This document shows positions 27,519 to 51,469 of a stretch of 64,000 bases of DNA, piece by piece. The notes under the pieces are model-generated. The model was given only the letters and a program-made list of their open reading frames with translations, did no database searches and had not been told where the DNA came from. Position numbers and translations under genes: made by a program. Within the stretch, counting starts at the first letter, position 1; each line of letters begins with the position of its first letter. The DNA lies in NCBI RefSeq assembly GCF_964204645.1, contig NC_134028.1, positions 12,323,263 to 12,387,262 of the forward strand, read 5' to 3'. Origin of the DNA: Tubulanus polymorphus (Eukaryota; Animalia; Nemertea).

Positions 27519-27534
27519 TTTTTTTATTATATAA

Positions 27535-29007: not shown

Positions 29008-29027
29008 TTAATTTTTTTGTTAAATAA

Positions 29028-30272: not shown

Positions 30273-30302
30273 AAATATAAAGTTAAAATTAACGATATAT
30301 AA

Positions 30303-31440
30303 ATGGGTGGTAAATAAAAAACTAAAAACTCCTAATACTAAAGAACAATATTCAAGAAATTTATATTACAACCCTGAGAGTTCGGTTGCTTATTCTTCTA
30401 CTAAAAATATATGGCGTCAAGTAAAACAAGATAAATTAGATAAGATAATCCCACAAAATTTAGTTAAATATAAAGATATAAATGAATTTATGTTAGAACA
30501 ACCAACATACACAACACATAAAAAAATTGTTAGAAAATATAAAACTCGTAAAACTATGGTAAGTTATGTAGATCAACAGTGGCAAGGAGATTTAATTGAT
30601 ATGAAAAATGTTAAGAAAGATAATAATGACTATTGGTGGTTATTGAATATAATTGATTTTTTTAGTCGTTATGTATGGAGTTTCCCACTTTATAGAAAAG
30701 ATGCTGTACAAACATCAAATGTTTTAAGAAAATTTCTTTCGGATGATAAACTAAAACCAGAAAAAATACAATTTGATGATGGAAAAGAGTTTGATAATTC
30801 ACTTGTTCATGAACTCTTAGATAATCATAATATTAAATATTTTTCAACAAAATCGGATAAAAAAGCAGCAGTTGTTGAACGATTTAATAGAACATTAAGA
30901 ACAAGAATGTGGAAATATTTTATAGCAAATAATACTTTTAAATGGATTGATGTTTTACCAAAATTGATAGAAGGATATAATAATTCTTATCATTCTTCTA
31001 TTGGAATGAAAGCTATTGATGCTAGAAAACCTGAAAATGCTGAAATTGTTTGGAATAATTTATATGGAGCATTTCTTGTAGATGATTTTGGTGAACCTAA
31101 ATTTAAAGTTGGTCAAAATGTTAGAATTTCTAAGTATAAAAAGATATTTGACAAAGGATACGATCGAAATTTTACTAGGTAAATATATAAAATACAAAAG
31201 GTAATAACAACAAAACCATATGTCTATAAATTAGAAGATTTAGATGGTGAAGAAGTTGATGGCTACTTTTACGAAGAAGAATTAAGTTTAACTACTGAAA
31301 ATCTAGAACAAGAATATAAAATTGAAAAAGTATTAAAAACAAAAACTATTAAAAGAAAAAAATATTCTTTAGTAAAATGGGTAGAATGGCCAGATAAATT
31401 TAATGAATGGATATTATCAAGTAAAATTAAAAATATATAA
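30303..31440 (+). pseudogene. RVE integrase with chromodomain, copy 1
   Basis: DDE motifs as in copy 2. Disrupted near the start and at ~31180. Confidence 0.9.
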
Positions 31441-32041
31441 ATGAATAAGGAATTATTTATATTTGAGCCTCATAATATGTTAATTTCTGGTGTAACAAAT
31501 TGTGGAAAAACTTATTTTATATTAAATTTATTAGAAACTGTTTATGAAAACTATTTTGATAATATAGTATTATTTTGTCCAACATATGAATTTAATCTAA
31601 CTTATGATAGAAATATTACTAGAAATAATAAATTTATTATATTAGATCCTAAAACAGTAAAAGAAAATTTAGATAATTGTATAAAAATAGCAATTGATAT
31701 TTATAAAGGATCAAATACATTATTTATCATAGATGATTGCGCAAATTTACATGATTCAAAAGTTAGAGAAAGTGAGTTATGCTATTTAGCTTTTTCTGGC
31801 AGACATTTTGGGATAACAACTTGGGTTTTAAATCAAAAATATAATTCAATTGTTAAAGACTTTAGAGAAAACATTAGATTTATTCTACAATAAAGATAGA
31901 AAATCGATGAAAAATGCACTTGAGGAAAATGATATTATTCCACATGATTTACATAATGAATATATGGATAAGTTGAAAAATATTAAAAGATCAAAATTAC
32001 TATTTAGATTACAACACCCATTTAAATATGAATTTATTTAA
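31441..32041 (+). pseudogene. A32-like packaging ATPase, copy 1
   Basis: GVTNCGKT, FIIDD, GRH..I. An 8-bp deletion causes a frameshift near 31880. Confidence 0.88.
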
Positions 32042-32042
32042 A

Positions 32043-32315
32043 TTCAACTAGCTTGTTAATCTAGTTGAATTCTAGTTACATTCTAGTTGAATTCTAGTTA
32101 TTGGTAGTTGTAACAAAAATCAACTAGATTTAACAATATTTTAACTAGCTTGTTAATCTAGTTTAATTCTAGTTACATTCTAGTTGAATTCTAGTTGTTA
32201 GTAGTTGAAACAAAAATCAACTAGATTTAACAAGAAATAAACAAAAACAACAATATTTCAACTAGCTTGTTAATCTAGTTGAATTCTAGTTAAATTCTAG
32301 TTGAATTCTAGTTGC
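32043..32315. repeat. CTAG-rich intergenic repeat with nested inverted repeats (copy 1)
   Basis: Units TCAACTAGCTTGTTAATCTAGTTGAATTCTAGTT. Equivalent blocks at ~36485-36745 and ~55615-55790. Confidence 0.85.
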
Positions 32316-32345
32316 AACATCACAACTAATTTTTTTGTTATATAA

Positions 32346-33228
32346 ATGGTAGGTGAAAAGAAAATAAAATCTAAAAATGGTGATGTTCCAATTGAAAAAA
32401 CTTTAGATGATTTAGGAATAACAGAAAACAAATAAATTCCAGATGATGGTGCTTTAAATAATGTTACAACAAATAATAATTATGAATATTATCTTTACTG
32501 TAAACATCAATTAGAAATATTAATAGCATCTGGAAAATGTAAAAATTTTGTCGGTAAAAATTTAACTTATAATGAATTAGATACAGTGAAATCAGATGAA
32601 ATTATTAGATTATTTAAGATTTATGAAGCCGCGAGAACAGCTAGAATCAATGACGCGATATCAGAAAATGTAGTAAAAGGTTATAGTAAATTATGTAATT
32701 ATATACTACCAATTGAAGATGAAAATAGATTATATTCCGATTTAAAAAATGATTATTTAGTTATGACTGAATTAAATGAATGGATTGGATATTTATCATT
32801 TCAATTAGGTGGATTTATGACATTATTATCAACTGGGATTATAACATTTTCAAATATTGAAAGTAAAAAATGTTCTATAATAAATGAGCGAGGTGGAAGA
32901 AGTGAAGGAATTAACTGTGAAGAAAAAACCGAGATCACAGAAACAAATTGAATGGTCTCGGCAATTAGGAATTAAATCACAAGAATATAAAAAAGCTGTA
33001 AAAGAAAAAATACGTAATAAAAATGTTAATAAAAATGGTGAAAATATTGTTATTTCTAATCCTTCTAATGATAGAATATGTGATAAATGTCTATATTTTA
33101 CAGTTGGATTTGTAATTGTATTCATTTTGATTGGGTGTAATTGGTATAAGAAATCAAATAAAATTCATGATATTAATAATTCTGAAACAACTGCTATCAA
33201 AAATGAAATTCTGAAATTCCATAATTGA
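32346..33228 (+). pseudogene. Two overlapping membrane-protein genes of copy 1 (32346-32951 with a stop; 32884-33228)
   Basis: Homologs of 35849-36454 and 35545-35916. Confidence 0.75.
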
Positions 33229-33401
33229 CAATAAAAAAAATGGATTAATATTTTAGAAAAAAAGCAAAAAAATAATTTTTTTAATTAATTGAATATTAAT
33301 TGAATATCTTTTGTCTATCTATGCGGAGAAATTAAATTGACCAGATAAGTCATTTCGGATTCTAGATAATCATTATTTTTATTAATTTATTTTTTTTAAA
33401 T

Positions 33402-33727
33402 TTAATCAACAATTTCTAAATCATGATGGCCATCTTCATTTTTTCCATGATAGATTATTTTAAATCCTTCTAAATCTTTTAATTCCTCTATACTCAATGA
33501 AACCCATTTATTAGGTAAAAATACTTTAAATTCTCGTGATGTACTAACATTACAGTAGCTTAAATTAGCTGATACTTTCTCTCCATATTTAGTTTTTATC
33601 TTTTCTAATTTCAATATTTTATGTTCAATTTCTTTTGTAACATCAACTAACTTTTTTATTTCAAATTGTTTTTTGCTGGTTTTATTCTGTTATTTATTGT
33701 TGCTAAGAATGCTTTTCTATCTCCCAT
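33402..33727 (-). pseudogene. TIR-adjacent small protein, copy 1 (1-bp deletion)
   Basis: Homolog of 35024-35350. Confidence 0.75.
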
Positions 33728-34026
33728 TTATAAGGAAAACAAATTACTTGTGGTGATGAGTGGGGATTACTTCGCCTTGTATATAACAAACACGCTATTA
33801 ACCGTTCTCACCCAAGCCTCACAGCATCTATTTATCCGAGCACAGTTGACACGCGATCACTGTACTACAGTAATAGCACACGCGTTAATAACCGTTCTCA
33901 GTAGAGACTCACTGTATCGATCTATCCACGCGCAGCTGTTGTTACGCGCACTCACTGTATATGTGTATCACAGAGCAATCGTCCGTTCTCACTAGAGCCT
34001 AGCTGTGATGAGTGGTGTCTCGTACT

Positions 34027-34666
34027 GGGTTGAATTATTATTTTGAGTTATGATATTTTGAATTAAGATGGTGGGATTTATTGCTTAAAGTATGATATTT
34101 TCCACAATCACACAACACTTTTTCATTAGGTTCATATTTAGGCGTAACAATTTCATTATCTAAGTTACATTGAACTGCAACATCTTTGAATGATTTTTCA
34201 TTATCTAATTCACATTGAATACCAATATTTGATAAACTTTCATTATAGATAATTTGTTTATCATCAAAATAATCTTTTCCTAAAATATTATTACTCAAAT
34301 TTTGATGGTGTTTTTGTGATTCGAGATGTCTTTTATAATTCCTTTTTACTATAAATTCATTACAAACTTCACATTTTATTTCATCCACATTCATATTTTC
34401 TAATCGTTCCTTTCTTTCATTGGATTTCTGGAGTTTCAAAATCTATTACATTTTTTATATGATTTGCAGATTTTTCATGATGAGATTTATTAGATTTATT
34501 AATGTATTTTTTACAATATGGACAATGATATTGATTTTCATTAACATTAATGTTTTCTGGCTGGTGTTCATTCTCCCCCATTTATTAGGAAAAAAAATCA
34601 CTTGTGGTGATGAGTGGTGTCTAGTACTCTAGTACTCTGGTATGAAAACGCCATCTTCTAATTACT
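34027..34666 (-). mobile_element. Terminal remnant of a variant element carrying a short zinc-finger gene (~34580-34038)
   Basis: TIR ends ...CTTCTAATTACT at 34666. The ORF shares the polB N-terminal zinc fingers (MGENEHQPE..., CEVCNEF) and then diverges. Confidence 0.7.
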
Positions 34667-34907: not shown

Positions 34908-35023
34908 AGTAATTAGAATATGTGGGTTTCATACCAGAGGACGAGAGGACGAGACACCACTCATCACCACAAGTAATTTTTTTCCTAACACTCATCACCA
35001 CAAGTAATTTTTTTTCCTAATAA

Positions 35024-35350
35024 ATGGGAGATAGAAAAGCATTCTTCGCAACAATAAATAACAGAATAAAACCAGCAAAAAAACAATTTGAAATAAAAAA
35101 GTTAGTTGATGTTACAAAAGAAATTGAACATAAAATATTGAAATTAGAAAAGATAAAAACTAAATATGGAGAGAAAGTATCAGCTAATTTAAGCTACTGT
35201 AATGTTAGTACATCGCGAGAATTTAAAGTGTTTTTACCCGATAAATGGGTTTCATTGAGTACGGAGGAATTGAAAGATTTAGTAGGATTTAAAATAATAT
35301 ATCATGGGAAAAATGAAGACGGTCATCATGATTTAGAAATTGTTGATTAA
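35024..35350 (+). CDS. 108-aa TIR-adjacent protein, possible OB-fold ssDNA-binding protein
   Basis: Intact ORF at TAAATG. Beta-strand-rich pattern with TKYG, FKVFLP and IIYHG. The fold is a guess. Confidence 0.55.
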   Translation: MGDRKAFFATINNRIKPAKKQFEIKKLVDVTKEIEHKILKLEKIKTKYGEKVSANLSYCNVSTSREFKVFLPDKWVSLSTEELKDLVGFKIIYHGKNEDGHHDLEIVD

Positions 35351-35544
35351 ATTTAAAAAAAAATAGATTAATAAAAATAATGAATATCTAGAATCCGAAA
35401 TGACTTATCTGGACAATTTAATTGCTCCACATAGATGGTGCCATAAACAACACCCACACAGTGATAGACAAAAGTAGTGAGATGGTGCCGTACGGCACCC
35501 ACATGGTGATATTCAATTATTTTTTTTGCTTTTTTTCTAAAATA

Positions 35545-35916
35545 TTAATCCATTTTTTTTATTATCAATTTTGGAATTTCAGAAGTACTTTCATTTTTGA
35601 TAGCAGTTGGTTCAGAATTACTACTAATATCATGAATTTTATTTGATTTCTTATACCAATTATACCCAATCAAAATGAATACAATTACAAATCCAACTGT
35701 AAAATATAAATATTTATCAAATATTCTACTATCAGAAGGAGTAGAAATAACAATATTTTCACCATTTTTATTAACATTTTTATTACTTATTTTTTCTTTT
35801 ACAGCTTTTTTATATTCTTGTGATTTAATTCCTAATTGTCGAGACCATTCAATTTGTTTCTGAGTTCTCGGTTTTTTCTTCACAGTTAATTCCTTCACTT
35901 CTTTCACCTCGCTCAT
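35545..35916 (-). CDS. Basic protein with a single TM helix (123 aa)
   Basis: KKPRTQKQIEW N-terminus and hydrophobic YLYFTVGFVIVFILIGY. Present in 3 copies. Confidence 0.75.
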   Translation of the reverse strand: MSEVKEVKELTVKKKPRTQKQIEWSRQLGIKSQEYKKAVKEKISNKNVNKNGENIVISTPSDSRIFDKYLYFTVGFVIVFILIGYNWYKKSNKIHDISSNSEPTAIKNESTSEIPKLIIKKMD

Positions 35917-36454
35917 TTATTATAGAAATATTTTTACTTTCAATATTTGAAAATGTTATAACCCCGGTTGATAATAATGTCATAAATCCACCTAATTGAA
36001 ATGATAAATATCCAATCCATTTATTTAATTCAGTCATAACTAAATAATCATTTTTTAAATCGGAATATAATCTATTTTCATCTTCAATTGGTAGTATATA
36101 ATTACATAATTTACTATAACCTTTTACTACATTTTCTGATATCGCGTCATTAATTTTAGCTGTTCTCGCGGCTTCATAAATCTTAAATAATCTAATAATT
36201 TCAACTGATTTCATTGTATCTAATTCATTATAAGTTAAATTTTTATCAACAAATTTTTTACATTTTCCAGATGCTATTAATATTTCTAATTGATGTTTGC
36301 AATAAAGATAATATTCATAATTATTATTTGTTGTAACATTATTTAAGGCACCATCATCTGGAATTAATTTTGTTTCTGTTATTCCTAAATCATCTAAAGT
36401 TTTTTCAATTGGAACATCACCATTTTTAGATTTTATTTTCTTTTCACCTCCCAT
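35849..36454 (-). CDS. Unknown protein (~201 aa, starts MGGEKK) with hydrophobic C-terminal segment
   Basis: Present in 3 copies. Start chosen by comparison with the TAAATG starts in copies 1 and 3. Confidence 0.75.
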   Translation of the reverse strand: MGGEKKIKSKNGDVPIEKTLDDLGITETKLIPDDGALNNVTTNNNYEYYLYCKHQLEILIASGKCKKFVDKNLTYNELDTMKSVEIIRLFKIYEAARTAKINDAISENVVKGYSKLCNYILPIEDENRLYSDLKNDYLVMTELNKWIGYLSFQLGGFMTLLSTGVITFSNIESKNISIINERGERSEGINCEEKTENSETN

Positions 36455-36747
36455 TTTTATAATAAAAAAATTAGTTGTGATGTTGCAACTAGAATTTAAC
36501 AAGAATGTAACTAGAATTCAACTAGATTAACAAGCTAGTTGAAATATTGTTGTTTTTGTTTATTTCTTGTTAAATCTAGTTGATTTTTGTTTCAACTACT
36601 AACAACTAGAATTCAACTAGAATGTAACTAGAATTAAAATAGATTAACAAGCTAGTTAAAATATTGTTAAATCTATTTGATTTTTGTTACAACTACTAAT
36701 AACTAGAATTCAACTAGAATTCAACTAGATTAACAAACTAATTGAAT

Positions 36748-37356
36748 TTAAATAAATTCATATCTAAATGGGTGTTGTAATCTAAATAGTAATTTTGATA
36801 TTTTAATATTTTTCAACTTATCCATATATTCATTATGTAAATCATGTGGAATAATATCATTTTCCTCAAGTGCATTTTTCATCGATTTTCTATCTTTATT
36901 GTAGAATAAAACTAGAAATCTAATGTTTTCTCTAAAGTCTTTAACAATTGAATTATATTTTTGATTTAAAACCCAAGTTGTTATCCCAAAATGTCTCCCA
37001 GAGAAAGCTAAATAGCATAACTCACTTTCTCTAATTTTTGAATCATGTAAATTTGCACAATCATCTATGATAAATAATGTATTTGATCCTTTATAAATAT
37101 CAATTGCTATTTTTATACAATCATCTAAATTTTCTTTTACTGTTTTAGGATCTAATATAATAAATTTATTATTCCTAGTAATATTTCTATCATAAGTTTG
37201 ATTAAATTCATATGTTGGACAAAATAATACTATATTATCAAAATAGTTTTTGTAAACAGTTTCTAATAAATTTAATATAAAATAAATTTTTCCACAATTT
37301 GTTACACCAGAAATTAACATATTATGAGGCTCAAATATAAATAATTCTTTATTCAT
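36748..37356 (-). CDS. A32/FtsK-like genome packaging ATPase
   Basis: Walker A GVTNCGK(I), Walker B LFIIDD, arginine-finger GRHFGI and LNQ motif. Confidence 0.9.
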   Translation of the reverse strand: MNKELFIFEPHNMLISGVTNCGKIYFILNLLETVYKNYFDNIVLFCPTYEFNQTYDRNITRNNKFIILDPKTVKENLDDCIKIAIDIYKGSNTLFIIDDCANLHDSKIRESELCYLAFSGRHFGITTWVLNQKYNSIVKDFRENIRFLVLFYNKDRKSMKNALEENDIIPHDLHNEYMDKLKNIKISKLLFRLQHPFRYEFI

Positions 37357-38484
37357 TTATATATTTTTAATTTTACTTGATAATATCCATTCATTGAATT
37401 TATCTGGCCATCCAACCCATTTTACTAAAGAATATTTTTTTCTTTTAATAGTTTTTGTTTTTAATACTTTTTCAATTTTATATTCTTGTTCTAGATTTTC
37501 AGTAGTTAAACTTAATTCTTCTTCATAAAAGTAACCATCAACTTCTTCACCATCTAAATCTTCTAATTTATAGACATATGGTTTTGTTGTTATTACCTTT
37601 TTTATTTTATATATTTCTCTAGTAAAATTTCGATCGTATCCTTTGTCAAATATCTTTTTATACTTAGAAATTCTAACATTTTGACCAACTTTAAATTTAG
37701 GTTCACCAAAATCATCTACAAGAAATGCTCCATATAAATTATTCCAAACAATTTCAGCATTTTCAGGTTTTCTAGCATCAATAGGTTTCATTCCAATAGA
37801 AGAATGATAAGAATTATTATATCCTTCTATCAATTTTGGTAAAACATCAATCCATTTAAAAGTATTATTTGCTGTAAAATATTTCCACATTCTTGTTCTT
37901 AATGTTCTATTAAATCGTTCAACAACTGCTGCTTTTTTATCTGATTTTGTTGAAAAATATTTAATATTATGATTATCTAAGAGTTCATGAACAAGTGAAT
38001 TATCAAACTCTTTTCCATCATCAAATTGTATTTTTTCTGGATTTAGTTTATCATCCGAAAGAAATTTTCTTAAAACATTTGATGTTTGTACAGCATCTTT
38101 TCTATAAAGTGGGAAACTCCATACATAACGACTAAAAATATCAATTATATTCAATAACCACCAATAATCATCATTATCTTTCTTAACATTTTTCATATCA
38201 ATTAAATCTCCTTGCCACTGTTGATCTACATAACTTACCATAGTTTTACGAGTTTTATATTTTCTAACAATTTTTTTATGTGTTGTATATGTTGGTTGTT
38301 CTAACATAAATTCATTTATATCTTTATATTTAACTAAATTTTGTGGGATTATCTTATCTAATTTATCTTGTTTTACTTTACACCATATATTTTTAGTAGA
38401 AGAATAAGCAACCGAACTCTCAGGGTTGTAATATAAATTTCTTAAATATTGTTCTTTAGTATTAGGAGTTTTTTTACCACTCAT
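37357..38484 (-). CDS. Retroviral-like (RVE) integrase with C-terminal chromodomain
   Basis: WQGDLIDM (D), IQFDDGKEF (D), VVERFNRTL (E), and chromodomain YKIEKVL...LVKWVGWPDKFNEWI. Confidence 0.95.
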   Translation of the reverse strand: MSGKKTPNTKEQYLRNLYYNPESSVAYSSTKNIWCKVKQDKLDKIIPQNLVKYKDINEFMLEQPTYTTHKKIVRKYKTRKTMVSYVDQQWQGDLIDMKNVKKDNDDYWWLLNIIDIFSRYVWSFPLYRKDAVQTSNVLRKFLSDDKLNPEKIQFDDGKEFDNSLVHELLDNHNIKYFSTKSDKKAAVVERFNRTLRTRMWKYFTANNTFKWIDVLPKLIEGYNNSYHSSIGMKPIDARKPENAEIVWNNLYGAFLVDDFGEPKFKVGQNVRISKYKKIFDKGYDRNFTREIYKIKKVITTKPYVYKLEDLDGEEVDGYFYEEELSLTTENLEQEYKIEKVLKTKTIKRKKYSLVKWVGWPDKFNEWILSSKIKNI

Positions 38485-38514
38485 TTATATATCCTTAATT
38501 TTAACTTTATATTT

Positions 38515-39762
38515 CTAATATTGAATACTATCTAATTGTGAATTTACAATATTTAATTGCGCGTCAGATATAATATAAATGTGCATTTTAAAATTTTTGA
38601 TTCCTTTATTCTTTTTCATGAATAATTGTATTCCATCTTTAGTGTTCTGTAGTTTTTTTCCAGAACCATGTAATGAATTATCTTCAGTTGTTCTAAAATC
38701 TAACCATAATGCATATTTATTACCGGTATAATAATCAATTTGATTAATGTTACAATTTTCAGATGATTTCACTTTTTCATTCATAAAATGTTTTCTAATT
38801 TCTGGCCATTGATCAATCATTCTCATTCCTTGACAAAATATTTTATTTGCTATACCTTCGATAGTTATTTCTACTTTTGTTATTTCAGGATTATAATAAT
38901 TGTCAACATTTATTGCACCATTAGTATACGTTCCAATGGTAAAAAATATTAATATACCTTTAATAGATCTTCTAGGAAAGTTAATATTCTCATTAATTAT
39001 TTCATCATTTGCATTAATAGTTACAGTTTTAAATTTATCAATATAATCATATAATAATGAAAACCCTTGATTGTATTGAGTTTGAATTATACTTGAAATA
39101 TTTTCATCAGTTACTGTATCATATTCTAAACATATATTCGATAATTTATAACTCATATCTTTAACAACGCTAGATAATACAATTTCATTTACAGGAGCAA
39201 ATGTTATTTCAAATATATCGTCTTCTTGAATTGCGTATTTATATAAAGGTGCATTATTATTTATCAATTCAAAGTCTAATGGAATTTTATATTTACTTCC
39301 ATATATACTTTTTATCAATTTATCTACATCATTAGTTAATATTGCGCTATTAGCTTCTGATCTTAATTTATTTTGGTTTTCTGATTGAATTCCTTGAAAT
39401 ATCATATTATTTCTATTTTCTTTAGTTAACCATAAATCTTTATAATGCATAAATAAATTATAATCATCTAATGAGAAAACTGTTTCTGGACCAATCTTTA
39501 TTGTTAACTTTTTAATCAAATATCTTCCAACATTATCAACGACATAATCATTATTATTACCGATTACTTTTATATCAGCTGATAAATAAATACTGTTTGG
39601 AACATAAAAAGTATTTTGTGTTAATCTAGGAATTCTAACATATAAAGTTTCATCGGGATTAATATTTGAAGGGTTATGAGTAATTATATGATGTGATCTT
39701 TCTGCTTTAATAGCATTAGATATTCTAGAAATCTTAGAAGGACTTATATAACTCCCACTCAT
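38515..39762 (-). CDS. Major capsid protein candidate (double jelly-roll), 415 aa
   Basis: Size, beta-rich pattern, high conservation among copies and position next to integrase and ATPase. N-terminal NPSNI...LYVRIP and LIKKLTIKIG segments resemble Polinton-like virus MCPs. Confidence 0.7.
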   Translation of the reverse strand: MSGSYISPSKISRISNAIKAERSHHIITHNPSNINPDETLYVRIPRLTQNTFYVPNSIYLSADIKVIGNNNDYVVDNVGRYLIKKLTIKIGPETVFSLDDYNLFMHYKDLWLTKENRNNMIFQGIQSENQNKLRSEANSAILTNDVDKLIKSIYGSKYKIPLDFELINNNAPLYKYAIQEDDIFEITFAPVNEIVLSSVVKDMSYKLSNICLEYDTVTDENISSIIQTQYNQGFSLLYDYIDKFKTVTINANDEIINENINFPRRSIKGILIFFTIGTYTNGAINVDNYYNPEITKVEITIEGIANKIFCQGMRMIDQWPEIRKHFMNEKVKSSENCNINQIDYYTGNKYALWLDFRTTEDNSLHGSGKKLQNTKDGIQLFMKKNKGIKNFKMHIYIISDAQLNIVNSQLDSIQY

Positions 39763-39829
39763 TTATTTAACAAAAAAATCAATTATTTATTTTTTATTAT
39801 GGTTTACTTGATATTTTTTGATATCATGT

Positions 39830-41272
39830 TTACTTGATATTTTTTGATATCATATTCACTAACCCAAAAATAATAGCACTTACAACTGTAATTAAAAATA
39901 AAATAATATGTTCAGCAGCAAAGTTAAGAATATTCCCAGCAGATTTCAATATAAAACCAACAATTGATGCAATAACTCCTGGCAATGCTGCAGCAGATTT
40001 TTTAGATAGTTCCCATAAATATTTTGCTAATTTCTTTAAACCATCCTTAACTTTATCTTGTATAGAATTATTGCCTGGAGGTTTATCTGGTCTATTGGGA
40101 GTGGGAGTAGGAGTAGATTTTAAAGCATTTGATATAGCTAAACCAATTGTTGTAAATAACATAGTTACAGCTGTTAGAATTGAAAGAATTGTTATTCCTT
40201 CTAATTTAAATAATAATCTTATTCTGTCTTTTAGTGATATTTCAGAATTTGGTTTAATCAACAAATCTTTAAAAATAACTTTTAATCTATTAATATTATA
40301 ATCATATGATTTTAACAATAATTTAATTTCTTCTTTTTGTAATTCTATGTTATATTCTAAATCATCTTTTTCTTTTTCTAAACGTAATTCTTTTTGCCTA
40401 TATTCTATTTCATCAATTACTTGATGATCTAAATCAGACTTTAATTGTTCTATTTCTTTATTTTTATCAGTTAATTCTTTTTCTAAAGTTCTAATTTTAA
40501 AATCTCTTATACTTTTATTATGTGCAATTTTATCAGATGCAAGTCTTATACTAATAATTTCTCTAATTGCTTTATCAGAAAATATATCTAAATCTTCTAA
40601 TTCTTGATCTGTTGCATCAATTAATCCATTCGGTAAAAGTTTTTCAATTGGAACTTTATTTGATTTAAGTTTACTATTTTTGGAAGTTATATTCTGTTCA
40701 GAAGTTGTTTCTGTTTCTGATTTCTTTTTGATTATTTCAAATAATTCATTAATTCTTTGTTTAAATACATCTATATTATCATCTATTTCTTTTTGTGTAA
40801 CATCAGTTATTTCATTACTATTACTTATTATTTTAATTCTATCTGGTTTTAATTTTTCTAAAGTTGATTCTGATAATATTTTATTTTTATTATTTTTATA
40901 AGTGATATCAATATAATAATCACCTTTCAAACGATAATAACATTTACCATTATCTAAAAATTTTAATTGATCTGCTAAAAGTCCAACGTCTTCATCATTT
41001 ATGTTAAAATTAGATTTTTCAATTAAATCTTCTAATTTAGGTATTTTGTTTAAATTATCTAAATCTTGTTTTACTAAATCTGGGTCTAAATTTTCAGGAT
41101 TTAATTGTGATTCAGCATTTTTAATATAATCAGGCATATTTAAATTATTATTATATTCTGGTTCATTACCATCATTAAAACTTGTTTCATCAAAATCAGG
41201 TGGTTGTTCATCAGTTATGTTAGGTTCATCAAAAGGATCCATTCCAATATCTTCTCCACCTTCTACATCCAT
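39830..41272 (-). CDS. Acidic N-terminus, coiled coil and multiple C-terminal TM helices (480 aa)
   Basis: Intact ORF with hydrophobic stretches GITILSILTAVTMLFTTIGLAI, LPGVIASIVGFIL and IILFLITVVSAIIFGLV. Confidence 0.8.
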   Translation of the reverse strand: MDVEGGEDIGMDPFDEPNITDEQPPDFDETSFNDGNEPEYNNNLNMPDYIKNAESQLNPENLDPDLVKQDLDNLNKIPKLEDLIEKSNFNINDEDVGLLADQLKFLDNGKCYYRLKGDYYIDITYKNNKNKILSESTLEKLKPDRIKIISNSNEITDVTQKEIDDNIDVFKQRINELFEIIKKKSETETTSEQNITSKNSKLKSNKVPIEKLLPNGLIDATDQELEDLDIFSDKAIREIISIRLASDKIAHNKSIRDFKIRTLEKELTDKNKEIEQLKSDLDHQVIDEIEYRQKELRLEKEKDDLEYNIELQKEEIKLLLKSYDYNINRLKVIFKDLLIKPNSEISLKDRIRLLFKLEGITILSILTAVTMLFTTIGLAISNALKSTPTPTPNRPDKPPGNNSIQDKVKDGLKKLAKYLWELSKKSAAALPGVIASIVGFILKSAGNILNFAAEHIILFLITVVSAIIFGLVNMISKNIK

Positions 41273-41288
41273 TTATATAATAAAAAAA

Positions 41289-42677
41289 TTAAAATTTAAA
41301 ATATAATATTCCTCCTATAACAATTCCTATACAAGTTATAGCTAATTTAGTATTTTCATGGGATTTATTATCATCATTTAGTTTAATTATATCATGTTGA
41401 ATTTTATCAGTTTTTATATCTTCTGATGTATTATAATCTTTTATTTTAGAATCATTATCCAATTTAATATTCTTAGTTTTAGTTTCAGTTGATTGAATAT
41501 GTTTTTTATTTTTTTCACCTTCCATTAATTTTGGAGCAGTAATAATCTTTTTATTTATATCATTTAATCCAAATGAATTATTTATTGTTGCAGTTTTAAT
41601 TAGATTATTATAACCAATTATATTTCCCATCTTCAATACTAAATCATTAGAAATAATTAATAGATTAGGGCCTATACAATAATTAAGTCTTACATGAGAT
41701 TTATCTAAATAATTTTGATATCTTATAATGTTTTCTGGAATCGATCTATTTTTATCATTATGTATGGAATCTTCAAATAAAACATTAAATTGTTTTTGTG
41801 TATCGAATGATGTATTCAAATTTCCAATTATCGGTGATCTTGTTTCAACTTGCGCACCTAAAATACAAATTAAATAAGTTCTAATAGATTGATTTATTCT
41901 TTCTATACCTGATTTAGTAAAACCTTCACTATTCTCTAAAATAAAATATACCCAACCATTATTGTTTTCTTGTTTTAAATTATCATAAAATTTCGGTAAT
42001 TTATTGAAATTTAATGTTTCTAAATCCTTTGTTTCTATTTTACCATAACCTAATTTATTATTATAGATATTATAAAAACTATTAGATGGTATGGGAAGTG
42101 CACAATATTCTGCAATCTTTCTAGGGCAAGGAAGTGATCTTATTGTTCCAATTTTTGTTCTAAAATCAGAATTATTTATATCTATATTAAATTCATTGCA
42201 AATTTTATAAAACTTTGATAAATTAATATTATTATCTAATTCTTTGAAATATCTAGATCCTGGTAAAGCGCACTCTAATTCATTTAATATTATTCTGATT
42301 TGAAAGTATGTATGAAATCTAAATAAACTTTGAATTAATTTATATTTAGAATTATTCAAATGATCATTCCAACTAATTCCACAACCTGTTGTTGCACAAT
42401 AAACAGCAAAATTTAATTGGTTCTGCCAATACTTCATATTAGATTTTAATAACCATTGTTTTTCATCTTTCAATTTTTTTAAATTAATTAAATATACATG
42501 AAATATATTTTCCATCTTTGCATTAAAATTATTAGTTTCAGTAACATAAATATATAAATCAATTAATGAATCTAAAACTTCATTTCTATATGTAATATCT
42601 TTATTAAAATCTATTGCTGGAATATTATATTTAATTGATTTATTATATTGGAAAGCTTTTGGAAAACTATCTACCAT
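41289..42677 (-). CDS. Unknown protein with C-terminal membrane anchor (462 aa)
   Basis: Intact ORF with conserved YWQNQLNFAVYCATTGCGIS and terminal LAITCIGIVIGGILYF. Confidence 0.8.
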   Translation of the reverse strand: MVDSFPKAFQYNKSIKYNIPAIDFNKDITYRNEVLDSLIDLYIYVTETNNFNAKMENIFHVYLINLKKLKDEKQWLLKSNMKYWQNQLNFAVYCATTGCGISWNDHLNNSKYKLIQSLFRFHTYFQIRIILNELECALPGSRYFKELDNNINLSKFYKICNEFNIDINNSDFRTKIGTIRSLPCPRKIAEYCALPIPSNSFYNIYNNKLGYGKIETKDLETLNFNKLPKFYDNLKQENNNGWVYFILENSEGFTKSGIERINQSIRTYLICILGAQVETRSPIIGNLNTSFDTQKQFNVLFEDSIHNDKNRSIPENIIRYQNYLDKSHVRLNYCIGPNLLIISNDLVLKMGNIIGYNNLIKTATINNSFGLNDINKKIITAPKLMEGEKNKKHIQSTETKTKNIKLDNDSKIKDYNTSEDIKTDKIQHDIIKLNDDNKSHENTKLAITCIGIVIGGILYFKF

Positions 42678-42694
42678 TTATATAATTAAAAAAA

Positions 42695-43129
42695 TTAATA
42701 ATTTATTAATTCTTTTAATAATTTATCTTGTTCTTCAACTGTTATATGACCATTTAAACTTATTATATAATCTAGTGTGTTCTTTAATTTATTAATTTCT
42801 TTTATATTAGATTTTATTTTTTCTTTATTACTTTTTATATTTAATTTTGAACTTATACCAGTTAAAACACTTGAACTTAATCCTAACACACCAATTGATA
42901 TAGCTAAAGGTGTTAATGGACTGAATATTGCTAGAAATGTTATTACAGAACTAATTGTAACCGAACCACTGATAATAAGATAATATATAATTTTACTTTT
43001 TAAATATTTTTTCTTTTTTATCTTTAAGTCACTTTCAAATTCTAATATTTGTTTTTCTAAATATATTTTTAATTTAGTTTTATTTATATCATGATGAATA
43101 ATATCAATATTATCAACTTTATCTTCCAT
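42695..43129 (-). CDS. Two-TM small protein (144 aa)
   Basis: Two adjacent hydrophobic helices. Present in 3 copies. Confidence 0.78.
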   Translation of the reverse strand: MEDKVDNIDIIHHDINKTKLKIYLEKQILEFESDLKIKKKKYLKSKIIYYLIISGSVTISSVITFLAIFSPLTPLAISIGVLGLSSSVLTGISSKLNIKSNKEKIKSNIKEINKLKNTLDYIISLNGHITVEEQDKLLKELINY

Positions 43130-43148
43130 TTATTTAGAATAAAAATTA

Positions 43149-43571
43149 CTAATTAGTAAACTTATAAGCAACAAATATAACAATAACAGTTCCACCTAAA
43201 ATCCATATTATTTCATATTTCTGTTGTTCTTTACTCGGGGTATAATAATCTGATAATTTAGGTTTGTATAGATGTAATTTTTCTTTATTTGTTACTGCGT
43301 TATATAAACTCATTGCATCATCAACTGATTGAAAATCTCTATGTGAAATCTTCTGATCATATAATTCTTTGTTAATATAATCCATATAGTTTTGTCGTTT
43401 TTCTCTATATTCTTCCGCAGCTTTATTGTATTTCTCTAACGCTAAGTTATGTCTTCTTTGTTCTCCTAATGAACTATTTTTATCAATATGTTTAAATAAA
43501 TAACCACCACCAGTAAATGCTAAAGCGTTAACAATTGCCGGTCCTATAATAGTTATAATTGCAGAAGCCAT
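43149..43571 (-). CDS. Small protein with N- and C-terminal hydrophobic segments (140 aa)
   Basis: IVNALAFTGGGYLF, short coiled coil and terminal TM. Present in 3 copies. Confidence 0.78.
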   Translation of the reverse strand: MASAIITIIGPAIVNALAFTGGGYLFKHIDKNSSLGEQRRHNLALEKYNKAAEEYREKRQNYMDYINKELYDQKISHRDFQSVDDAMSLYNAVTNKEKLHLYKPKLSDYYTPSKEQQKYEIIWILGGTVIVIFVAYKFTN

Positions 43572-43596
43572 TTATTTAGCAAAAAAAATTATGCAT

Positions 43597-43818
43597 TTAT
43601 ATGGGAGGAATATATTTTTGTTTTTCCAAATAATCAATAGTTAAATTAGATAAAGTAACTGCTAATGTTAACTTTAAAATATCATTTATATCAAATCTAT
43701 CAACATTAACACTTCCCATTTTGAATACTTTTTTTAATACCATTGAATAACCAACCGTTCCAACTGATAGTAATGCACCATTATATAATCCAGTTATTAT
43801 CCACTTATTATCACTCAT
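43597..43818 (-). CDS. 73-aa hydrophobic protein
   Basis: Present in 4 copies, TAAATG start. Confidence 0.78.
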   Translation of the reverse strand: MSDNKWIITGLYNGALLSVGTVGYSMVLKKVFKMGSVNVDRFDINDILKLTLAVTLSNLTIDYLEKQKYIPPI

Positions 43819-44160
43819 TTATTTATCAAAAAAATTACTATCATCAAAATATTTAGTTAACTTATTTATGATTAATTCAACATTTATTTCATTACTAGTT
43901 TTATGATTATCATATATTTTGGATAATATGTTTTTGATATCTTCAATAATTCCATCTTCATTTAATTCATAATATTCTAAAGGTGATTTAATTAAATCAA
44001 TTACTTTTTCTATATTATACTTTTCTTTATCAATCATTGACGCATTGTTAAATGATTTACTTTTTATATCAGTAATTACATCATTTAGTTTAATTCTCAT
44101 TTCTTTACCATGTTTAAAATCAAACCCAAAACATATACTCGGTCCAACAGTTATATTCAT
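43819..44160 (-). CDS. Unknown 113-aa protein
   Basis: Present in 4 copies, TAAATG start. Confidence 0.72.
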   Translation of the reverse strand: MNITVGPSICFGFDFKHGKEMRIKLNDVITDIKSKSFNNASMIDKEKYNIEKVIDLIKSPLEYYELNEDGIIEDIKNILSKIYDNHKTSNEINVELIINKLTKYFDDSNFFDK

Positions 44161-44176
44161 TTATATAATGAAAAAA

Positions 44177-44935
44177 TTACTCTTTACATCTTATAACTAA
44201 TTCATAAATTACAGGGAAATTATTTAAATCAATTAAGTATCCATTATGATTTCTAATTTCTAATCTAAAATTATTAAAACGAGGAATGCATGGTTTGAAA
44301 TCACATTCTGTTAAATTATAATTTATTTGCGTTCCAAATTGTTTAACATTCTTCAATGGTAAAATGTTTAGTAAACCAGAATTACATGTTGTATCTTTAG
44401 TTGCTTCAAATGTTTTTGTAGGATCGATTAAATTGCAATAAATATAAAAATGTGTAAAAGGTATTATATTTGAATTACCGTCTACGTTTCCTGTAACAAT
44501 TTGTGGTTTAATTCCTAACAGTTTAGCTAAAGGTTTCCTTACCATAAATGCATGTTTGCTTTCATCATCTAACTTTATTTTAATTTTATCAGAACTATCA
44601 CTTTTTATAAATCTAATTGAAAATTTATATTCACTTCCAAGTTTTAAACGAGCTCTTTTATTAATTTCTTGGGCTAATGTTTCTAAATTATATAACCCTG
44701 GTTTTAACATTAGATAAAACCATTTATTTTTATTTTTCATATGAATTGCAAAACCTCTATGTTCGAAAGTTTTATCCGATATATTATAAAAAGAATTACA
44801 TAAACTTATATTTACTAATTTTAAATCAACGCAATTCTTAAATTCTCTATCTAATTGTACTAATAAATTATGAGATTTATAATTTGTAAGTTTTCTAGAA
44901 TCAACAAATATTCTGTATTCTTTTAATTCTACCAT
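44177..44935 (-). CDS. Minor capsid protein (penton, single jelly-roll) candidate
   Basis: IFVDSR, LCNSFYNI, PGLYN, FYIYCNLI and LEIRNHNGYLIDLNN..VIYELVI, the pattern typical of virophage/PLV pentons. Confidence 0.78.
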   Translation of the reverse strand: MVELKEYRIFVDSRKLTNYKSHNLLVQLDREFKNCVDLKLVNISLCNSFYNISDKTFEHRGFAIHMKNKNKWFYLMLKPGLYNLETLAQEINKRARLKLGSEYKFSIRFIKSDSSDKIKIKLDDESKHAFMVRKPLAKLLGIKPQIVTGNVDGNSNIIPFTHFYIYCNLIDPTKTFEATKDTTCNSGLLNILPLKNVKQFGTQINYNLTECDFKPCIPRFNNFRLEIRNHNGYLIDLNNFPVIYELVIRCKE

Positions 44936-45003
44936 TATTTATAACATAAAAAAATTACCGCTCATCACTAAAAATTAATTTTAATAAAATTTTTCCTTAA
45001 TAA

Positions 45004-46302
45004 ATGGATGAGAAGATAGCATGCGAAATTTGTGGTGAACTTCTAAGAAAAAGTAATAAGGCTCGACATATGAAAAAACATGATGAAAATTATAAACCCC
45101 CTAAAATAAACTGTCCAAAATGTAATAAATTATTCTCAAGAAATTATGTTAAAAAACATTCAGAGAAGTGTAGAATTAATGGCGCAACGGCTAATGTTGA
45201 TAGTAATTCTGCTGAAGTTGAACCTGAAGTTATTTGGAAAAGACCTTTCTTATTCTATGATAAGGATAATATAAAAGATCATTTCTGTGAGCCTTGTCAA
45301 GTAAAATATAGCCCTGAAAATATAGAAGATTGGGAGAATCATCAATTTCGTAAAGCACATATAGATAAAATTTCTAATAAATTTGAAACTGAATTCAATG
45401 AAAGAAAAAATAATTTATTAGAAAAAATAAAATATGAGAAAACGTTACCAGATAATAAAGAAACAGTTGAAAAGTTAGAAAAACAATATAATGAATTAAC
45501 AAGAAAAACATATTATTGTAAATATTGTAAATTGATTATTACAACAAGTAATTCAAATCTACATAATAGAACAATAAAACATAAAGAAAACGTAAGAAAA
45601 TACCAAGAGCTTAATGAAGATCTATTACCAAGAAATTATAAACAAAAATGCCCACAATGTAGTTATGCGACCTTAAGGCAAGAAGGTACTGTGTTATTTT
45701 GTGTTGAATGTGGATGGCAAAAGAATTTATGGGGTGAAGAAAAAACTAGAGATTTTCTCATAGAACCAAAATTAAATTATCTAGATGAAATTTTTAAAAT
45801 ATTTTCTATAGAAGATCATACACCAGAATATATGCAATGGCTTGAAAAAATGAAAATAATAGAAAATAAAAATGGTGAAATAACTAAAAAAGATATTATA
45901 AAAACAATTATTCCACCAACATTTAACACAAAACAAAAGAAAATGTATTTATATTTATTATTTAACGATTATTATGAAAAACCTAAATTAACAGAAGAAG
46001 ATATGGAAAATATAAAAAAAATATTTAAACAAATATTAATGTATTATTTGGAAAATAGAATAACAGATTCAATAAATTATGAATTCTTTTTAAATAAGAT
46101 TGTAAATTATTTAAACCTAGATATTATAATTCCATTTGATGAATTAACAAACAAAAAGAAACAAAGAGAGCGAGATGAAATGTGGAACAAGATAGAACTT
46201 TATTTAAATGAGAAAAATGGAATGGAAGAAGAACCTGAACAATTAAATGAAAATGAAGAAGCCAATAGTGATTTCGAGTTTGATGATATAGATCCATTTT
46301 AA
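45004..46302 (+). CDS. C2H2 zinc fingers fused to a poxvirus/NCLDV VLTF3(A2)-like late transcription factor domain
   Basis: Four N-terminal zinc-finger-like units, zinc ribbon CPQC...CVECG, and C-terminal PKLTEED..IKKIFKQI...INYEFFLNKI...RDEMWNKI. Confidence 0.7.
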   Translation: MDEKIACEICGELLRKSNKARHMKKHDENYKPPKINCPKCNKLFSRNYVKKHSEKCRINGATANVDSNSAEVEPEVIWKRPFLFYDKDNIKDHFCEPCQVKYSPENIEDWENHQFRKAHIDKISNKFETEFNERKNNLLEKIKYEKTLPDNKETVEKLEKQYNELTRKTYYCKYCKLIITTSNSNLHNRTIKHKENVRKYQELNEDLLPRNYKQKCPQCSYATLRQEGTVLFCVECGWQKNLWGEEKTRDFLIEPKLNYLDEIFKIFSIEDHTPEYMQWLEKMKIIENKNGEITKKDIIKTIIPPTFNTKQKKMYLYLLFNDYYEKPKLTEEDMENIKKIFKQILMYYLENRITDSINYEFFLNKIVNYLNLDIIIPFDELTNKKKQRERDEMWNKIELYLNEKNGMEEEPEQLNENEEANSDFEFDDIDPF

Positions 46303-49300
46303 TAACCATAAGGTAATGTTTTTATACCATCATCTGAAATATGCCTTTTATCATCAAATGGATTTAAACTAGTTTTTTCAACTTCATTAATGTACATCTC
46401 ATGATCTTCTGATCTTAAACAATTCATCTTGTGTTTCATTACAATTGATTTATATAAACACTTTATATAATCTTGAAATTCTATATGTTTATCAACCACA
46501 TGTTTTGTTATTCCTTTTAACTTTTTAGCTTCATGATCTTTTGTTCTGTAACTATACATTTTACTTCTTATCCCAACAAATTCAATCATTTCATCACCTC
46601 CTAATTCATCTTTAAATTTACCAGGAATCTTTTTATTATCATTGCTAAATAGTTCATGATCTTTAGGATAATTGCTAAAATCAAAATGATGTTTTAATGT
46701 TTTTAAGTCTTTTGTTATGTCATTTGTCTTGATTTTTAGTATGTAGGCGTCAGTATTGACCGCTATTAATGGAAATCCACAGTTAAATGTACCATCTTCA
46801 GTTGATAAATCATAAACATAATCTGTTGGGTTATATATTTCAAATAAATCTTTAACTTCTTCAGTTAACTCATTTTCTACATGGCTTAAATTAAAGCAAT
46901 TTGGTTTAGATTTAATCAATCCAATATTCATATTGAAGCCTAATGAATTACATAATATATTTAATCCTGATATAGCAACTTTTCCTTTTTGAGCAAAGGA
47001 TATTGTTTTGCGGTTTTGGAAACTTTTTGAACCATCTGCTGCATAGAATCCAATGAAGAACCATTTTCTTAAATTATTTTTTGCATTTAATACATAATCT
47101 GGAACTATCTTTTCTTTTGTCGAAGTATTACTTTTCACTATTGCATGAATATAGAATTCATCATTATATTCTATAGCAAAATCTTTAGGATTATTTACAA
47201 GTATTCTATAAACTGCTGATGATTTCATAACATCTATGATTTTGAATGTTTTATTTGGATAAACTTCTTCACAGAATTTCTTAAATCTTTCTAATAATTT
47301 TAAGTCTTGATTGCATAAATACCAACAATATTTAGTTCCACTAACATAATTATACACACCTGCTGAACCATCACCCATGAAAAATCCTTTGATAAAATAT
47401 TCTTTTTCTTCTAATGTTTCGGGTTCTATATTATAAATATTATCAATTATTTCATCAAATGACATATGATTCATTCTTGGGTAAAATCTCTTATGTAATA
47501 ATTCATCTCCAATTTTTATATCAATTGGTTTTATTTTATCACCATTTCGTTTAATTAAACTATGATCTTCTGTAACATCTACAAACCCTAATTTAGTTCT
47601 AACTCTATAGATTTTCTTATTTGTTTTATGCCTAATAATATTCTTTAATTTTTTCCATCCATTTCTTGTCCAAACATCCATTAAACCATTTATTTGTATT
47701 AATTCTTTTTCTCCATATGAAATATAACATTCATTTTGTTTTGGAATTATTTCTGAAATTCTTCTTACCAATATTTTATTATTACATTTTAATAATATTG
47801 GGGTGTCGGCCGTTACAGAATCGAAGTACAGAATTTCTATATGTTTTTCCCCAAACAATGGTTGTAAAACATTATAATAAAAATTATACATTAGTAATTT
47901 TGATATTTCCAAAACAGTTGAACCTATAAATATAGGTTTATTAAATTTTAATGATGTTCTTTTTAATTTTACTGCTGTTAAATAATCTTCAAACCTTTTA
48001 TTTCCTAAATGTCTAGGACTTGATTGTAAATGTCTTAATCTTTCAGAATTATTTACTAATTCAATATCATTTCTATTTCTAATATTTTCACATGTTTTAC
48101 CATAAAAACTATTATTCATTAATTTAAAGAAATCTTTTTCAAAATCTGTTTTTGATATGGTTCTCTGTTGAGTATTGAAATCTATATATTTTTCTAACCA
48201 CTTCGATTGATTAAATTCAATATATCTATGTACTTTCTTTAATTTCATTCCTTGTTTTAGATAAAATTTTAACATTCTATAATGAACAATATAATTGTAT
48301 TTATTATTTTGAGTAAGTATGAATTTTTCTGTAAAAACATGATCTTTCGGTTTTATTTTCTTCTGGTATTCACTTAAATAACTATCATCTACAGTTAAAT
48401 GTTCTGGGCAATAAGGTAAGTTTCTTGTTTTAAACTTTATATTTTCAGGATATTCTAAATCAACTACAAAGAAATAACCAATTGGTGCTTCATCTTTTAA
48501 ACTAATAATTGCGCTTTCCCAATCAGTTTTATCACCATTTTCAACTTCTGTTAATATAAAATTTTTATATGGTTGAGGTTGCATCATTGCCCAACCATAT
48601 AAATTATTGGCGTCAATATATAATAATTTATATTCATCATTTGCTTTAAAATACCTATCTCCCATAACACCACTAATTCCACCTCTAATTGATTTTTCAA
48701 ATAATAAAACCATATCTGGTTCTTTTAATAAATCTAATTCTACATTTGTATATTTTAAACCACATTGCCAGGTTAAACCAGGACTAGAGTAGCAATAACA
48801 AGGATCAACATTAAAATGATTCAAATTAACTTCTCTAAATTTTTCAAATATGTCAGCCAATATCATAACATCTGATTTCAAGTATAAATCTACTAATTCA
48901 CCCTGATTTTCTACCTTAAAATGATTCCAAATATTCAATGTTCTATTAAAAACTTCATCTTTCACATACTCCTCTTTTAATTGATCATAAAATTGTTCTT
49001 TTAATAATTCTGTTACATTAAAATCATCATGTGTTTTATAAAATGAATAAGGAATTGCGCCTTTATATCTCAATAATTTAAAATCTTGTTCATTTGGATA
49101 ATAATGTCGAGTTATTAAATCATTATCAACTATACTTTTTGCTAAATTATCTAATGAACTTGCTTAAAATCTATAAGAATCTAAAAATCTAATGCAACCA
49201 AATTGAAATGAAATATTATTTTCAGATGTCTTAGCTAATAGTTTAAAATCATATTTTCTTACATTTGCACCATTCATAGCATTATATTCTTCTATTTCTT

Positions 49301-51464: not shown

Positions 51465-51469
51465 TTATA

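Follow-up and report, generated by a model that had tools for sequence, protein, structure and literature searches.

Mavericks or Polintons (Polintoviricetes, 'adintoviruses') are characterized by genes for a protein-primed polymerase B (pPolB), an rve integrase, an A32 ATPase and capsid proteins, by terminal inverted repeats, a length of 17 kb and many copies, and their target-site duplication is 6 bp long. Mavirus and the EMALEs of Cafeteria are likewise small integrating dsDNA viruses with an rve integrase and a polymerase B, present in dozens of chromosomal copies, and their genes bear the late promoter motif of a large virus. This motif predicts reactivation, as described in passages of PMC10945749 and PMC8547959: only those endogenous virophages that carried the CroV late motif were reactivated by CroV. 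The Gezel-14T (PgVV) virophage, a Polinton-like virus of an algal system, also shares a promoter motif with its helper, in that case a mimivirus-type early motif on 5 genes (excerpts of 10.1101/2022.07.28.501842). In animals, four Polinton-like viruses associated with entomopoxviruses have been proposed as hyperparasites of poxviruses; they encode an adenovirus-type protease, and their link to poxviruses is occlusion-body DNA (PMC11296320). The words promoter, motif, TAAA, VLTF and intein are all absent from that paper's main text.

In this report, we analyzed a 64-kb stretch of DNA (the window) and found in it three decayed copies of a Polinton-type element of about 17 kb, whose host is likely an invertebrate. 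Our literature search found no paper describing this element. Our main finding is that nearly all of its genes, and most of those of a single clade of relatives, start at a motif of the poxvirus late type. We consider that the element is an integrated Polinton-type virus and likely a virophage, the genes of which would probably be transcribed by a co-infecting poxvirus or a close relative.

Copies and gene content of the element

The copies, and a fragment of another one, are arranged as follows.

17423..34666, plus strand: copy 1, inverted relative to copy 2, with a rearranged terminal fragment at its end
34908..51803, minus strand: copy 2, the best kept, with 14 non-polymerase ORFs open and the polymerase gene in pieces
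51804..52787, minus strand: fragment of a further copy's penton region, containing TAAATG starts at 52014 and 52377 as well
54343..64000, minus strand: copy 3, more decayed, continuing past the window end

The element has a GC content of 24% and is present in many copies in the genome. Copies 1 and 2 are about 92-94% identical in long alignments, and several copy 1 genes have frame breaks; broken genes occur in all three copies of the window. Copy 2 ends in imperfect terminal inverted repeats, with AGT at its start and ACT at its end. The sequences flanking copies 1 and 2 show no match of the kind a target-site duplication would leave, but three of these four flanks are fragments of other elements. 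The features of copy 2 are listed below; genes start at TAAATG unless stated otherwise.

35002..35026, plus strand: example of the promoter-like motif (TAA, T-run, short spacer, TAAATG), in the terminal repeat with no gene upstream
35024..35350, plus strand: 108-aa ORF of no family, with a homologue in locus L003
35545..35916, minus strand: 123-aa ORF with a hydrophobic stretch and an A-rich upstream core
35849..36454, minus strand: 201-aa conserved ORF; start motif degraded here, intact in copies 1 and 3
36748..37356, minus strand: A32-like packaging ATPase (Pox_A32, E 9.8e-12); the TAA of its start is the integrase stop
37357..38484, minus strand: retrovirus-type integrase (rve, E 4.2e-10) with a C-terminal chromodomain (Chromo, E 8e-4)
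38515..39762, minus strand: major capsid protein, predicted double jelly-roll, from a weak Capsid_N match and Atlas look-alikes
39830..41272, minus strand: 480-aa coiled-coil protein, conserved family-wide, whose C-terminus has hydrophobic segments
41289..42677, minus strand: 462-aa protein, conserved family-wide, without Pfam match
42695..43129, minus strand: 144-aa two-helix membrane protein; weak SLATT-like match, below cut-off
43149..43571, minus strand: 140-aa conserved small membrane-type protein
43597..43818, minus strand: 73-aa conserved small protein; the TAA of its start is the upstream stop
43819..44160, minus strand: 113-aa ORF
44177..44935, minus strand: 252-aa putative minor capsid protein (penton), a label from the preliminary description; without match in the Pfam scan; start TAAATAATG
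45004..46302, plus strand: late transcription factor domain of the VLTF3 type (poxvirus A2-like), joined to zinc fingers; gene divergent from the penton gene
46299..51480, minus strand: protein-primed DNA polymerase B gene, in several ORFs, start lost
46755..47819, minus strand: 355-aa intein with a LAGLIDADG endonuclease, in the polymerase YxD/TD motif

The polymerase is 41-44% identical to the DNA_pol_B_2 proteins of loci L027 and L041. A weak Capsid_N match was found in 18 of the 44 members of the capsid family, none of the 44 matches the DJR-like Pfam family at E 0.05, and PDB sequence and fold searches with the capsid gave no clear match; Preplasmiviricota capsid clusters are among its Atlas look-alikes (0.97-0.98). 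No Ulp1/adenain cysteine protease was found among the copy 2 ORFs, several of which have no family, in a Pfam scan at E 0.01, and no ORF of the element has a Pfam match to a virophage-type capsid or protease.

The element differs from Mavericks in its capsid, in the cysteine protease that was not found, and in the poxvirus-type starts across its clade; a target-site duplication was not seen at the flanks described above. Its place may be among the animal elements of the Polinton-3_NV type, which have PLV-like capsids (PMC11296320; 10.64898/2026.06.19.733378). Compared with mavirus and the EMALEs, it has a capsid of another lineage, TAAATG rather than TCTA, a VLTF3 of its own, no detected protease and a host that is likely an animal. 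Unlike the entomopoxvirus-associated viruses, it is multi-copy in the genome, and its poxvirus link is regulatory.

TAAATG at gene starts

All 15 starts that the preliminary description had assigned to TAAATG are correct, each coordinate marking the first base of an ATG that directly follows TAA on the strand given. Its extension to most equivalent starts of the other copies also holds (12/14 in copy 2 and, in copy 3, 12 of the 13 starts it covers); copy 1 has the motif on 12 of its 14 non-polymerase starts, and on the polymerase as follows.

17504..17509, plus strand: TAAATG of the copy 1 polymerase start (17507), inside the terminal repeat

In copy 2 the corresponding start, near 51464, is lost. 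Each of the three copies has TAAATAATG at the start of the putative penton gene, the sequence given for it in the preliminary description, and the motif is otherwise degraded at the capsid start of copy 1 (29028) and at 36454 in copy 2. Enrichment is strong: TAAATG occurs at 12 of 14 starts of copy 2, but at just 20 of the 211 sense ATGs that are out of frame (p = 6.6e-10 by Fisher's test), at 51 of all 677 ATGs, and at 87 of 1881 first-ATG ORFs from 100 shuffles of this copy.

Among related loci the motif was present at 55 of 65 ORFs (16 loci, GC 20-44%), versus 2 of 346 ORFs in 66 other loci. Loci bearing it form one capsid clade (15 rows, SH-aLRT 98 in a quick tree; the clade list was made after the motif counts were known, and the tree check came later). 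The clade loci carry seven assembly prefixes, L001 and L002 being near-identical. Since the tree shows a single origin of the motif, these loci, although many, amount to one evolutionary event. Searches of viral_contigs with the capsid, ATPase and VLTF3 ORFs returned nothing related.

The motif is bipartite, with a T-run peak about 10 bases upstream of TAAAT. The preliminary description had noticed such T-runs, and they set starts apart from other TAAATG: in copy 2, 11 of the 12 start motifs have T at -13, compared with 12 of the 39 TAAATG away from starts, and in relatives the figures are 42/54 against 26/80, with 48/54 against 23/80 for T at -12. In the window, an additional TAA precedes the T-run, at -19 to -17. 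At -3, T is found in 56 of 65 clade starts and A in 183 of 346 starts of the other loci.

In vaccinia late promoters, a conserved T lies ten bases upstream of TAAAT (PMC11980589, in part), and passages of this paper and of PMC5294985 describe the same arrangement as here, that is, TAAAT followed by G over the start codon and a T-run centred ten bases upstream. The extra TAA is not described in these passages. The element differs from vaccinia further in having no RNA polymerase and in bearing the motif on about 85% of its genes, polymerase and integrase included. The proposal that the motif is of the poxvirus late type is therefore supported, the match being to the published vaccinia consensus, which may not be that of the helper. 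An entomopoxvirus-type control had TAAATG at 13 of 36 starts and no T peak at -13; the upstream match is thus to vaccinia as published and not to the virus type nearest the element's VLTF3. Scanning viral_contigs with the extended motif returned 15 loci, none related to the element and none motif-enriched.

The VLTF3 homologue and the intein

The VLTF3-like gene of the preliminary description is real. ORF 45004 is a VLTF3 homologue, and its sole annotated VLTF3 match among 1.84 billion representatives is of the entomopoxvirus type. It matches P0124 (phmmer E 3.4e-5), which comprises Pox_VLTF3 and an A2L zinc ribbon and is 63% identical to an entomopoxvirus-type gene; four invariant Cys (C4 zinc ribbon) and a C-terminal helical domain are aligned. 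A folded model of the ORF, built from an alignment that included P0124, gave poxvirus VLTF3 at ranks 1, 3 and 5 in Foldseek (E 2.7e-6), with non-pox VLTF3 matches close behind (E 3.5e-5 to 1.5e-4); the single-sequence fold was uninformative (pLDDT 41). ORF 45004 has no direct match to Pfam PF04947, a word-based protein search with it found nothing at E 0.001, and PDB sequence and fold searches with VLTF3 gave no clear match. Within the clade the VLTF3 was found only as an N-terminal half, in L003, and no VLTF3 domain was found in the other loci, those of 12-14 kb included. Vaccinia A2 works with the partners A1 and G8 and with the viral polymerase; A1, G8 and a viral RNA polymerase were not detected in a Pfam scan of copy 2 ORFs. 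VLTF3 has been reported in coral polintoviruses, whose promoters are not described in the sections of PMC11131425 consulted.

The intein, first taken as a sign of the helper, begins with Ser and ends with Asn followed by Thr. We rejected it as a helper marker: its best matches lie in other Polinton-type polymerases, at the same insertion, and one motif-bearing relative has none. The view that the element is driven by a helper thus retains the motif type, the clade restriction and the VLTF3, and loses the intein.

Transcription of the element

The poxvirus-style starts together with the poxvirus-like factor gene make it likely that the element stays silent until a poxvirus-type virus infects the cell, and then acts as a parasite of that virus. 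Integrated copies would be silent in uninfected cells; upon infection, late transcription factors and polymerase of the helper would initiate within TAAAT and, by slippage, give the transcripts a 5' poly(A) leader in place of the T at -3, a base that is unfavourable to host ribosomes at this position. The element's VLTF3, with its extra zinc fingers, may help recruit the helper late machinery to the TAAATG promoters. Every gene, polymerase and integrase included, would be turned on in the helper late phase, as in mavirus, and the element would then be copied by protein priming, packaged by its own ATPase and capsid, and re-integrated. On the side of cell compartments, the integrase needs the nucleus, and a helper polymerase of the cytoplasm would have to reach integrated copies, a point against the virophage reading. 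One presumed RNA run aligned in just two pieces of 21-30 bases and does not bear on expression.

It is unlikely that the element is instead an autonomous nuclear virus, combining a captured VLTF3 with the host's RNA polymerase II at an initiator of its own, similar to the poxvirus one in appearance only, with no need of a helper. Integration in the nucleus, the presence of the same motif before the element's own VLTF3 and the extra TAA would all fit such a virus, but the partners A1 and G8 and the viral polymerase were not detected, and a factor driven by its own promoter requires an outside trigger. Moreover, initiation at the ATG would leave no leader and T at -3, presumably a bad context for host translation if slippage did not supply A's. 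Counts of AATAAA in coding strands stay close to those expected from synonymous shuffles, with ratios of 0.90-1.12 across all groups, and so do not separate nuclear from cytoplasmic transcription. The early terminator TTTTTNT is depleted, but the same holds for every long run of T or A; T5-non-T-T compares with other T5 endings as 0.59 vs 0.63 in the window and 0.33 vs 0.69 in relatives.

We give a similarly low chance to dependence on a different large DNA virus whose late initiator is TAAAT-like, or to an ancestral link of which the present copies are inert passengers that affect no virus. Asfarviruses also have bipartite A/T-rich late promoters, according to passages of PMC5294985, but the late motifs quoted for ASFV (TATATA) and CroV (TCTA) are unlike TAAATG at the start codon. 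The absence of the word 'promoter' from the egovirus preprint and the control's missing T peak leave room for such a helper, while the nearest annotated VLTF3 is of the poxvirus type. Inert passengers would agree with the gene breakage in the window, but metagenome relatives have mostly whole ORFs and keep the motif although their capsids are only 50-55% identical.

Last, it is highly improbable that TAAATG is no promoter and reflects AT composition, stop-start coupling, an upstream AATAAA, a trans-splice acceptor or translation context, despite the low GC content of the element and the many starts reading AATAAATG: the motif persists in relatives at 40-44% GC and in matched GC classes (45/53 in the clade vs 1/25 in other, AT-rich loci; 10/12 vs 0/57); the TAA is the upstream stop, as had been proposed for some genes, at two of 11 consecutive minus-strand pairs of copy 2, a minor contribution, and in relatives at one of 38 motif starts in tandem, while 11 of 12 divergent (head-to-head) starts have the motif; relatives have TTTAAATG, CATAAATG or TCTAAATG, which means that AATAAA is no constant part of it; and AG lies within -6 to -1 at only 2 of 65 starts, which argues against a splice acceptor. 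Neither AT content, nor stop-start coupling, nor ordinary translation context accounts for the TAAATG starts.

More tentatively, and with the odds somewhat against it, the aquatic-invertebrate Polinton clade as a whole could consist of germline-inherited provirophages of undiscovered poxviruses, an animal counterpart of the mavirus-CroV defence in which a captured poxvirus VLTF3 would redirect the helper polymerase. The clade-wide promoter names a likely helper class for animal Polintons and makes helper dependence testable. If this reading is true, the motif would point to unknown poxviruses in invertebrates, hosts without known ones, and inherited virophage defence would reach from protists to animal germlines.

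Three element copies and their start signal

Self-comparison of the window revealed three copies of one Polinton-type element (24% GC, against about 38% in the flank); they are listed here with two features of the host sequence:

12331-13647, minus strand: LINE-type reverse transcriptase ORF, host flank
15172-16789: 30-base satellite (about 54 units), shortly before copy 1
about 17423-34666, plus strand: copy 1
34908-51803, minus strand: copy 2
about 54343 to the window end, minus strand as copy 2: copy 3

The Atlas clusters nearest the flank reverse transcriptase are eukaryotic; few of their members are labelled, and of those, flatworms and arthropods are the most frequent, which makes an invertebrate host likely. 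A whole-genome run from 2026 bearing the same species label covers the element at 210-880 reads per base (85% likeness) and the quietest flank bins at 6-18 (97% likeness); these depths therefore point to tens of element copies in the genome, a rough figure given the differing thresholds.

Imperfect inverted repeats bound the element. At the ends of copies 1 and 2 no target-site duplication was observed, because these copies adjoin fragments of others (34038-34908 and 51804-52787). Such fragments suggest nested insertion or rearrangement in the cluster beside the satellite. One terminal-repeat arm holds an internally repeated, more GC-rich array of about 270 bases (33756-34022 and 51493-51761), which may be an origin or a protein-binding array; it is flanked by a ACTCATCAC-type box, and boxes of this type also precede the terminal promoters.

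Copy 2, the best kept, has 14 open non-polymerase ORFs, including an A32 ATPase, an rve integrase with chromodomain and a 415-aa capsid protein. Its polymerase gene is in pieces, and the C-terminal part shares 41-44% identity with DNA_pol_B_2 proteins of related loci. The 15 coordinates at which the preliminary description placed TAAATG over a start codon are all correct, and its proposed enrichment holds: in copy 2 the motif marks 12 of 14 starts but only 20 of the 211 internal ATGs that are out of frame (p=6.6e-10); among first-ATG ORFs of shuffled copy 2 it marks 87 of 1881. The putative penton start reads TAAATAATG in all three copies. Since the polymerase start of copy 1 bears TAAATG, replication and integration genes share the motif with structural genes. 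TAAATG at starts is thus a genuine feature of the element.

Restriction of the motif to one capsid clade

Capsid alignment yielded 83 loci, 80 of them kept from 169 confirmed in metagenome contigs, plus three. In the 16 loci whose capsids are at least about 50% identical, TAAATG stands at 55 of 65 ORFs of at least 100 aa, versus 2 of 346 ORFs in the remaining 66 loci that have an ORF to count. The split is kept at matched composition (45/53 versus 1/25 ORFs at up to 32% GC; 10/12 versus 0/57 at 33-45% GC). A capsid tree, built by a quick method from 69 of 84 rows and excluding capsid ORFs under 300 aa (L026 and L075 among them), unites the window element and 14 motif-bearing loci in one clade (SH-aLRT 98). 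The clade list was drawn after the motif counts were known and was confirmed by the tree afterwards; its loci come from seven assembly prefixes and include some near-duplicates. The motif arose once.

Several loci are of interest in themselves. In L022 (9967-13596), outside the clade, a helicase-type replication gene replaces the protein-primed polymerase beside the same capsid module. L081-L083 are capsid relatives whose short contigs were assigned to bacterial and archaeal genome assemblies, mis-binning being the probable cause. Two clade members encode a deoxynucleoside kinase (L003, 10340-10981, with a TAAATG start; L007, 2895-3380), an enzyme that would be of use in replicating within a cytoplasmic factory.

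Likeness to poxvirus late transcription

TAAATG at starts differs from internal TAAATG in its upstream bases. The T-run reported ahead of the motif is present in copy 2 as a T at -13 relative to the ATG (11/12 start versus 12/39 internal motifs). In 14 related loci, T occurs at -13 in 42/54 versus 26/80, T at -12 in 48/54 versus 23/80, and A at -18 in 41/54 versus 17/80. Vaccinia late promoters are described as having TAAAT, with G as the next base, at the start codon and a conserved T ten bases ahead of TAAAT, that is, at -13 in our numbering (PMC11980589); a T-containing core 5-7 bases ahead of TAAAT is also described (PMC5294985). Two entomopoxvirus-type stretches carry TAAATG at 13 of 36 starts but without the T peak of the element, which speaks against an over-specific reading of the match.

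Three minus-strand genes, the 123-aa gene (35916), ATPase (37356) and integrase (38484), have an A-rich core rather than a T-run, a pattern reminiscent of the intermediate/late division of poxviruses. The core at the ATPase start recurs in L001, L003 and L004, but overlaps integrase coding sequence.

The VLTF3-like gene (45004-46302, plus strand, in copy 2) proved correctly named, on the strength of a sequence match and of structural matches to poxvirus VLTF3. Its C-terminal 260 residues have four matches among 1.84 billion representatives, two of which reach into the zinc-finger region as the window ORF does; P0121 matches the start of the L003 ORF nearly letter for letter. The fourth, P0124 (E 3.4e-5), combines Pox_VLTF3 with an A2L zinc ribbon, and shares 63% identity with a gene of a viral contig of 232,392 bases that bears MSV199 genes and an NAD-dependent ligase. 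With the model of the ORF (pLDDT 70.5), cowpox and two entomopoxvirus VLTF3 rank 1, 3 and 5, other large-virus VLTF3 following close behind; because the folding alignment included P0124, this ranking may lean towards poxviruses. The VLTF3 domain profile has no match in the 83 loci, most of them partial; VLTF3 is already reported in a subgroup of polintoviruses (PMC11131425).

The longest contig is 12,994 for both P0123, a VLTF3-like protein, and P0022, a clade-level capsid, so the two may belong to a single element. C2H2/U1-type zinc fingers stand at the beginning of both the polymerase N-terminus (17507-17900) and the VLTF3 ORF (45004-45600); in L001, L004, L008, L011 and L026, similar slots are filled by unrelated ORFs with zinc fingers.

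The polymerase C-terminal part holds a 355-aa LAGLIDADG intein, which had been read as a sign of the helper. We reject it as such a marker: its best matches lie at the same site in other Polinton-type polymerases (41-48%), and the site is empty in motif-bearing L008, as it is in seven loci outside the clade. The matches that follow are to RNA-primed family B polymerases (about 36-40%), of large-virus, phage and Pol delta types as judged by eye and Pfam. Intein and homing endonuclease insertions in polinton polymerases have been noted (PMC11161782). The intein (46755-47819) ends in Val-Asn, its closest homologues in His-Asn.

Probable transcription by a co-infecting virus

The element has no RNA polymerase, yet nearly all its genes bear the late signal of a cytoplasmic virus. 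No poxvirus polymerase subunit was found in the window or in 17 clade ORFs without a family, a weak Rpb1-domain match (E 0.086) being discounted. CroV, the helper giant virus of the virophage mavirus, is reported to reactivate only endogenous mavirus copies with the CroV late motif (PMC10945749, PMC8547959), a tested precedent. We consider it probable that the element is transcribed by a co-infecting poxvirus or a close relative. An autonomous nuclear cycle would draw on the VLTF3 that the element does encode; we hold this cycle unlikely. Another helper, or a dead link, seems to us just as unlikely.

That the motif is not a promoter is hardly credible: its TAA can double as the upstream stop, as had been described, but among 38 tandem motif starts it does so once, the motif is present at 11 of 12 head-to-head starts, AATAAA is not the invariant part, an AG acceptor at only 2 of 65 starts argues against a splice acceptor, and the clade stays apart from other loci after GC matching. 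The usual animal translation context has a purine at -3. Clade starts have T there (56/65; A in 183/346 starts of other loci), and so give up a good translation context, a cost that could be explained if, as in poxviruses, a poly(A) leader is added by slippage at TAAAT.

A full-text literature search, covering few subscription papers and judging most by title and abstract start, found none in which Polintons are connected with TAAATG or with the late promoters of poxviruses. Barth et al. link protease-bearing elements to entomopoxviruses (PMC11296320); by contrast, a family scan of the copy 2 ORFs found no protease family. A term search found no promoter analysis in their main text, and the supplements could bear on the point; the word 'promoter' is likewise absent from two preprints of 2026 on the diversity of Polinton-like viruses, supplements aside.

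If a poxvirus or close relative does transcribe the element, slippage at TAAAT would accompany expression, the copies would be silent absent that helper, whose identity we infer, and they may have an antiviral effect.
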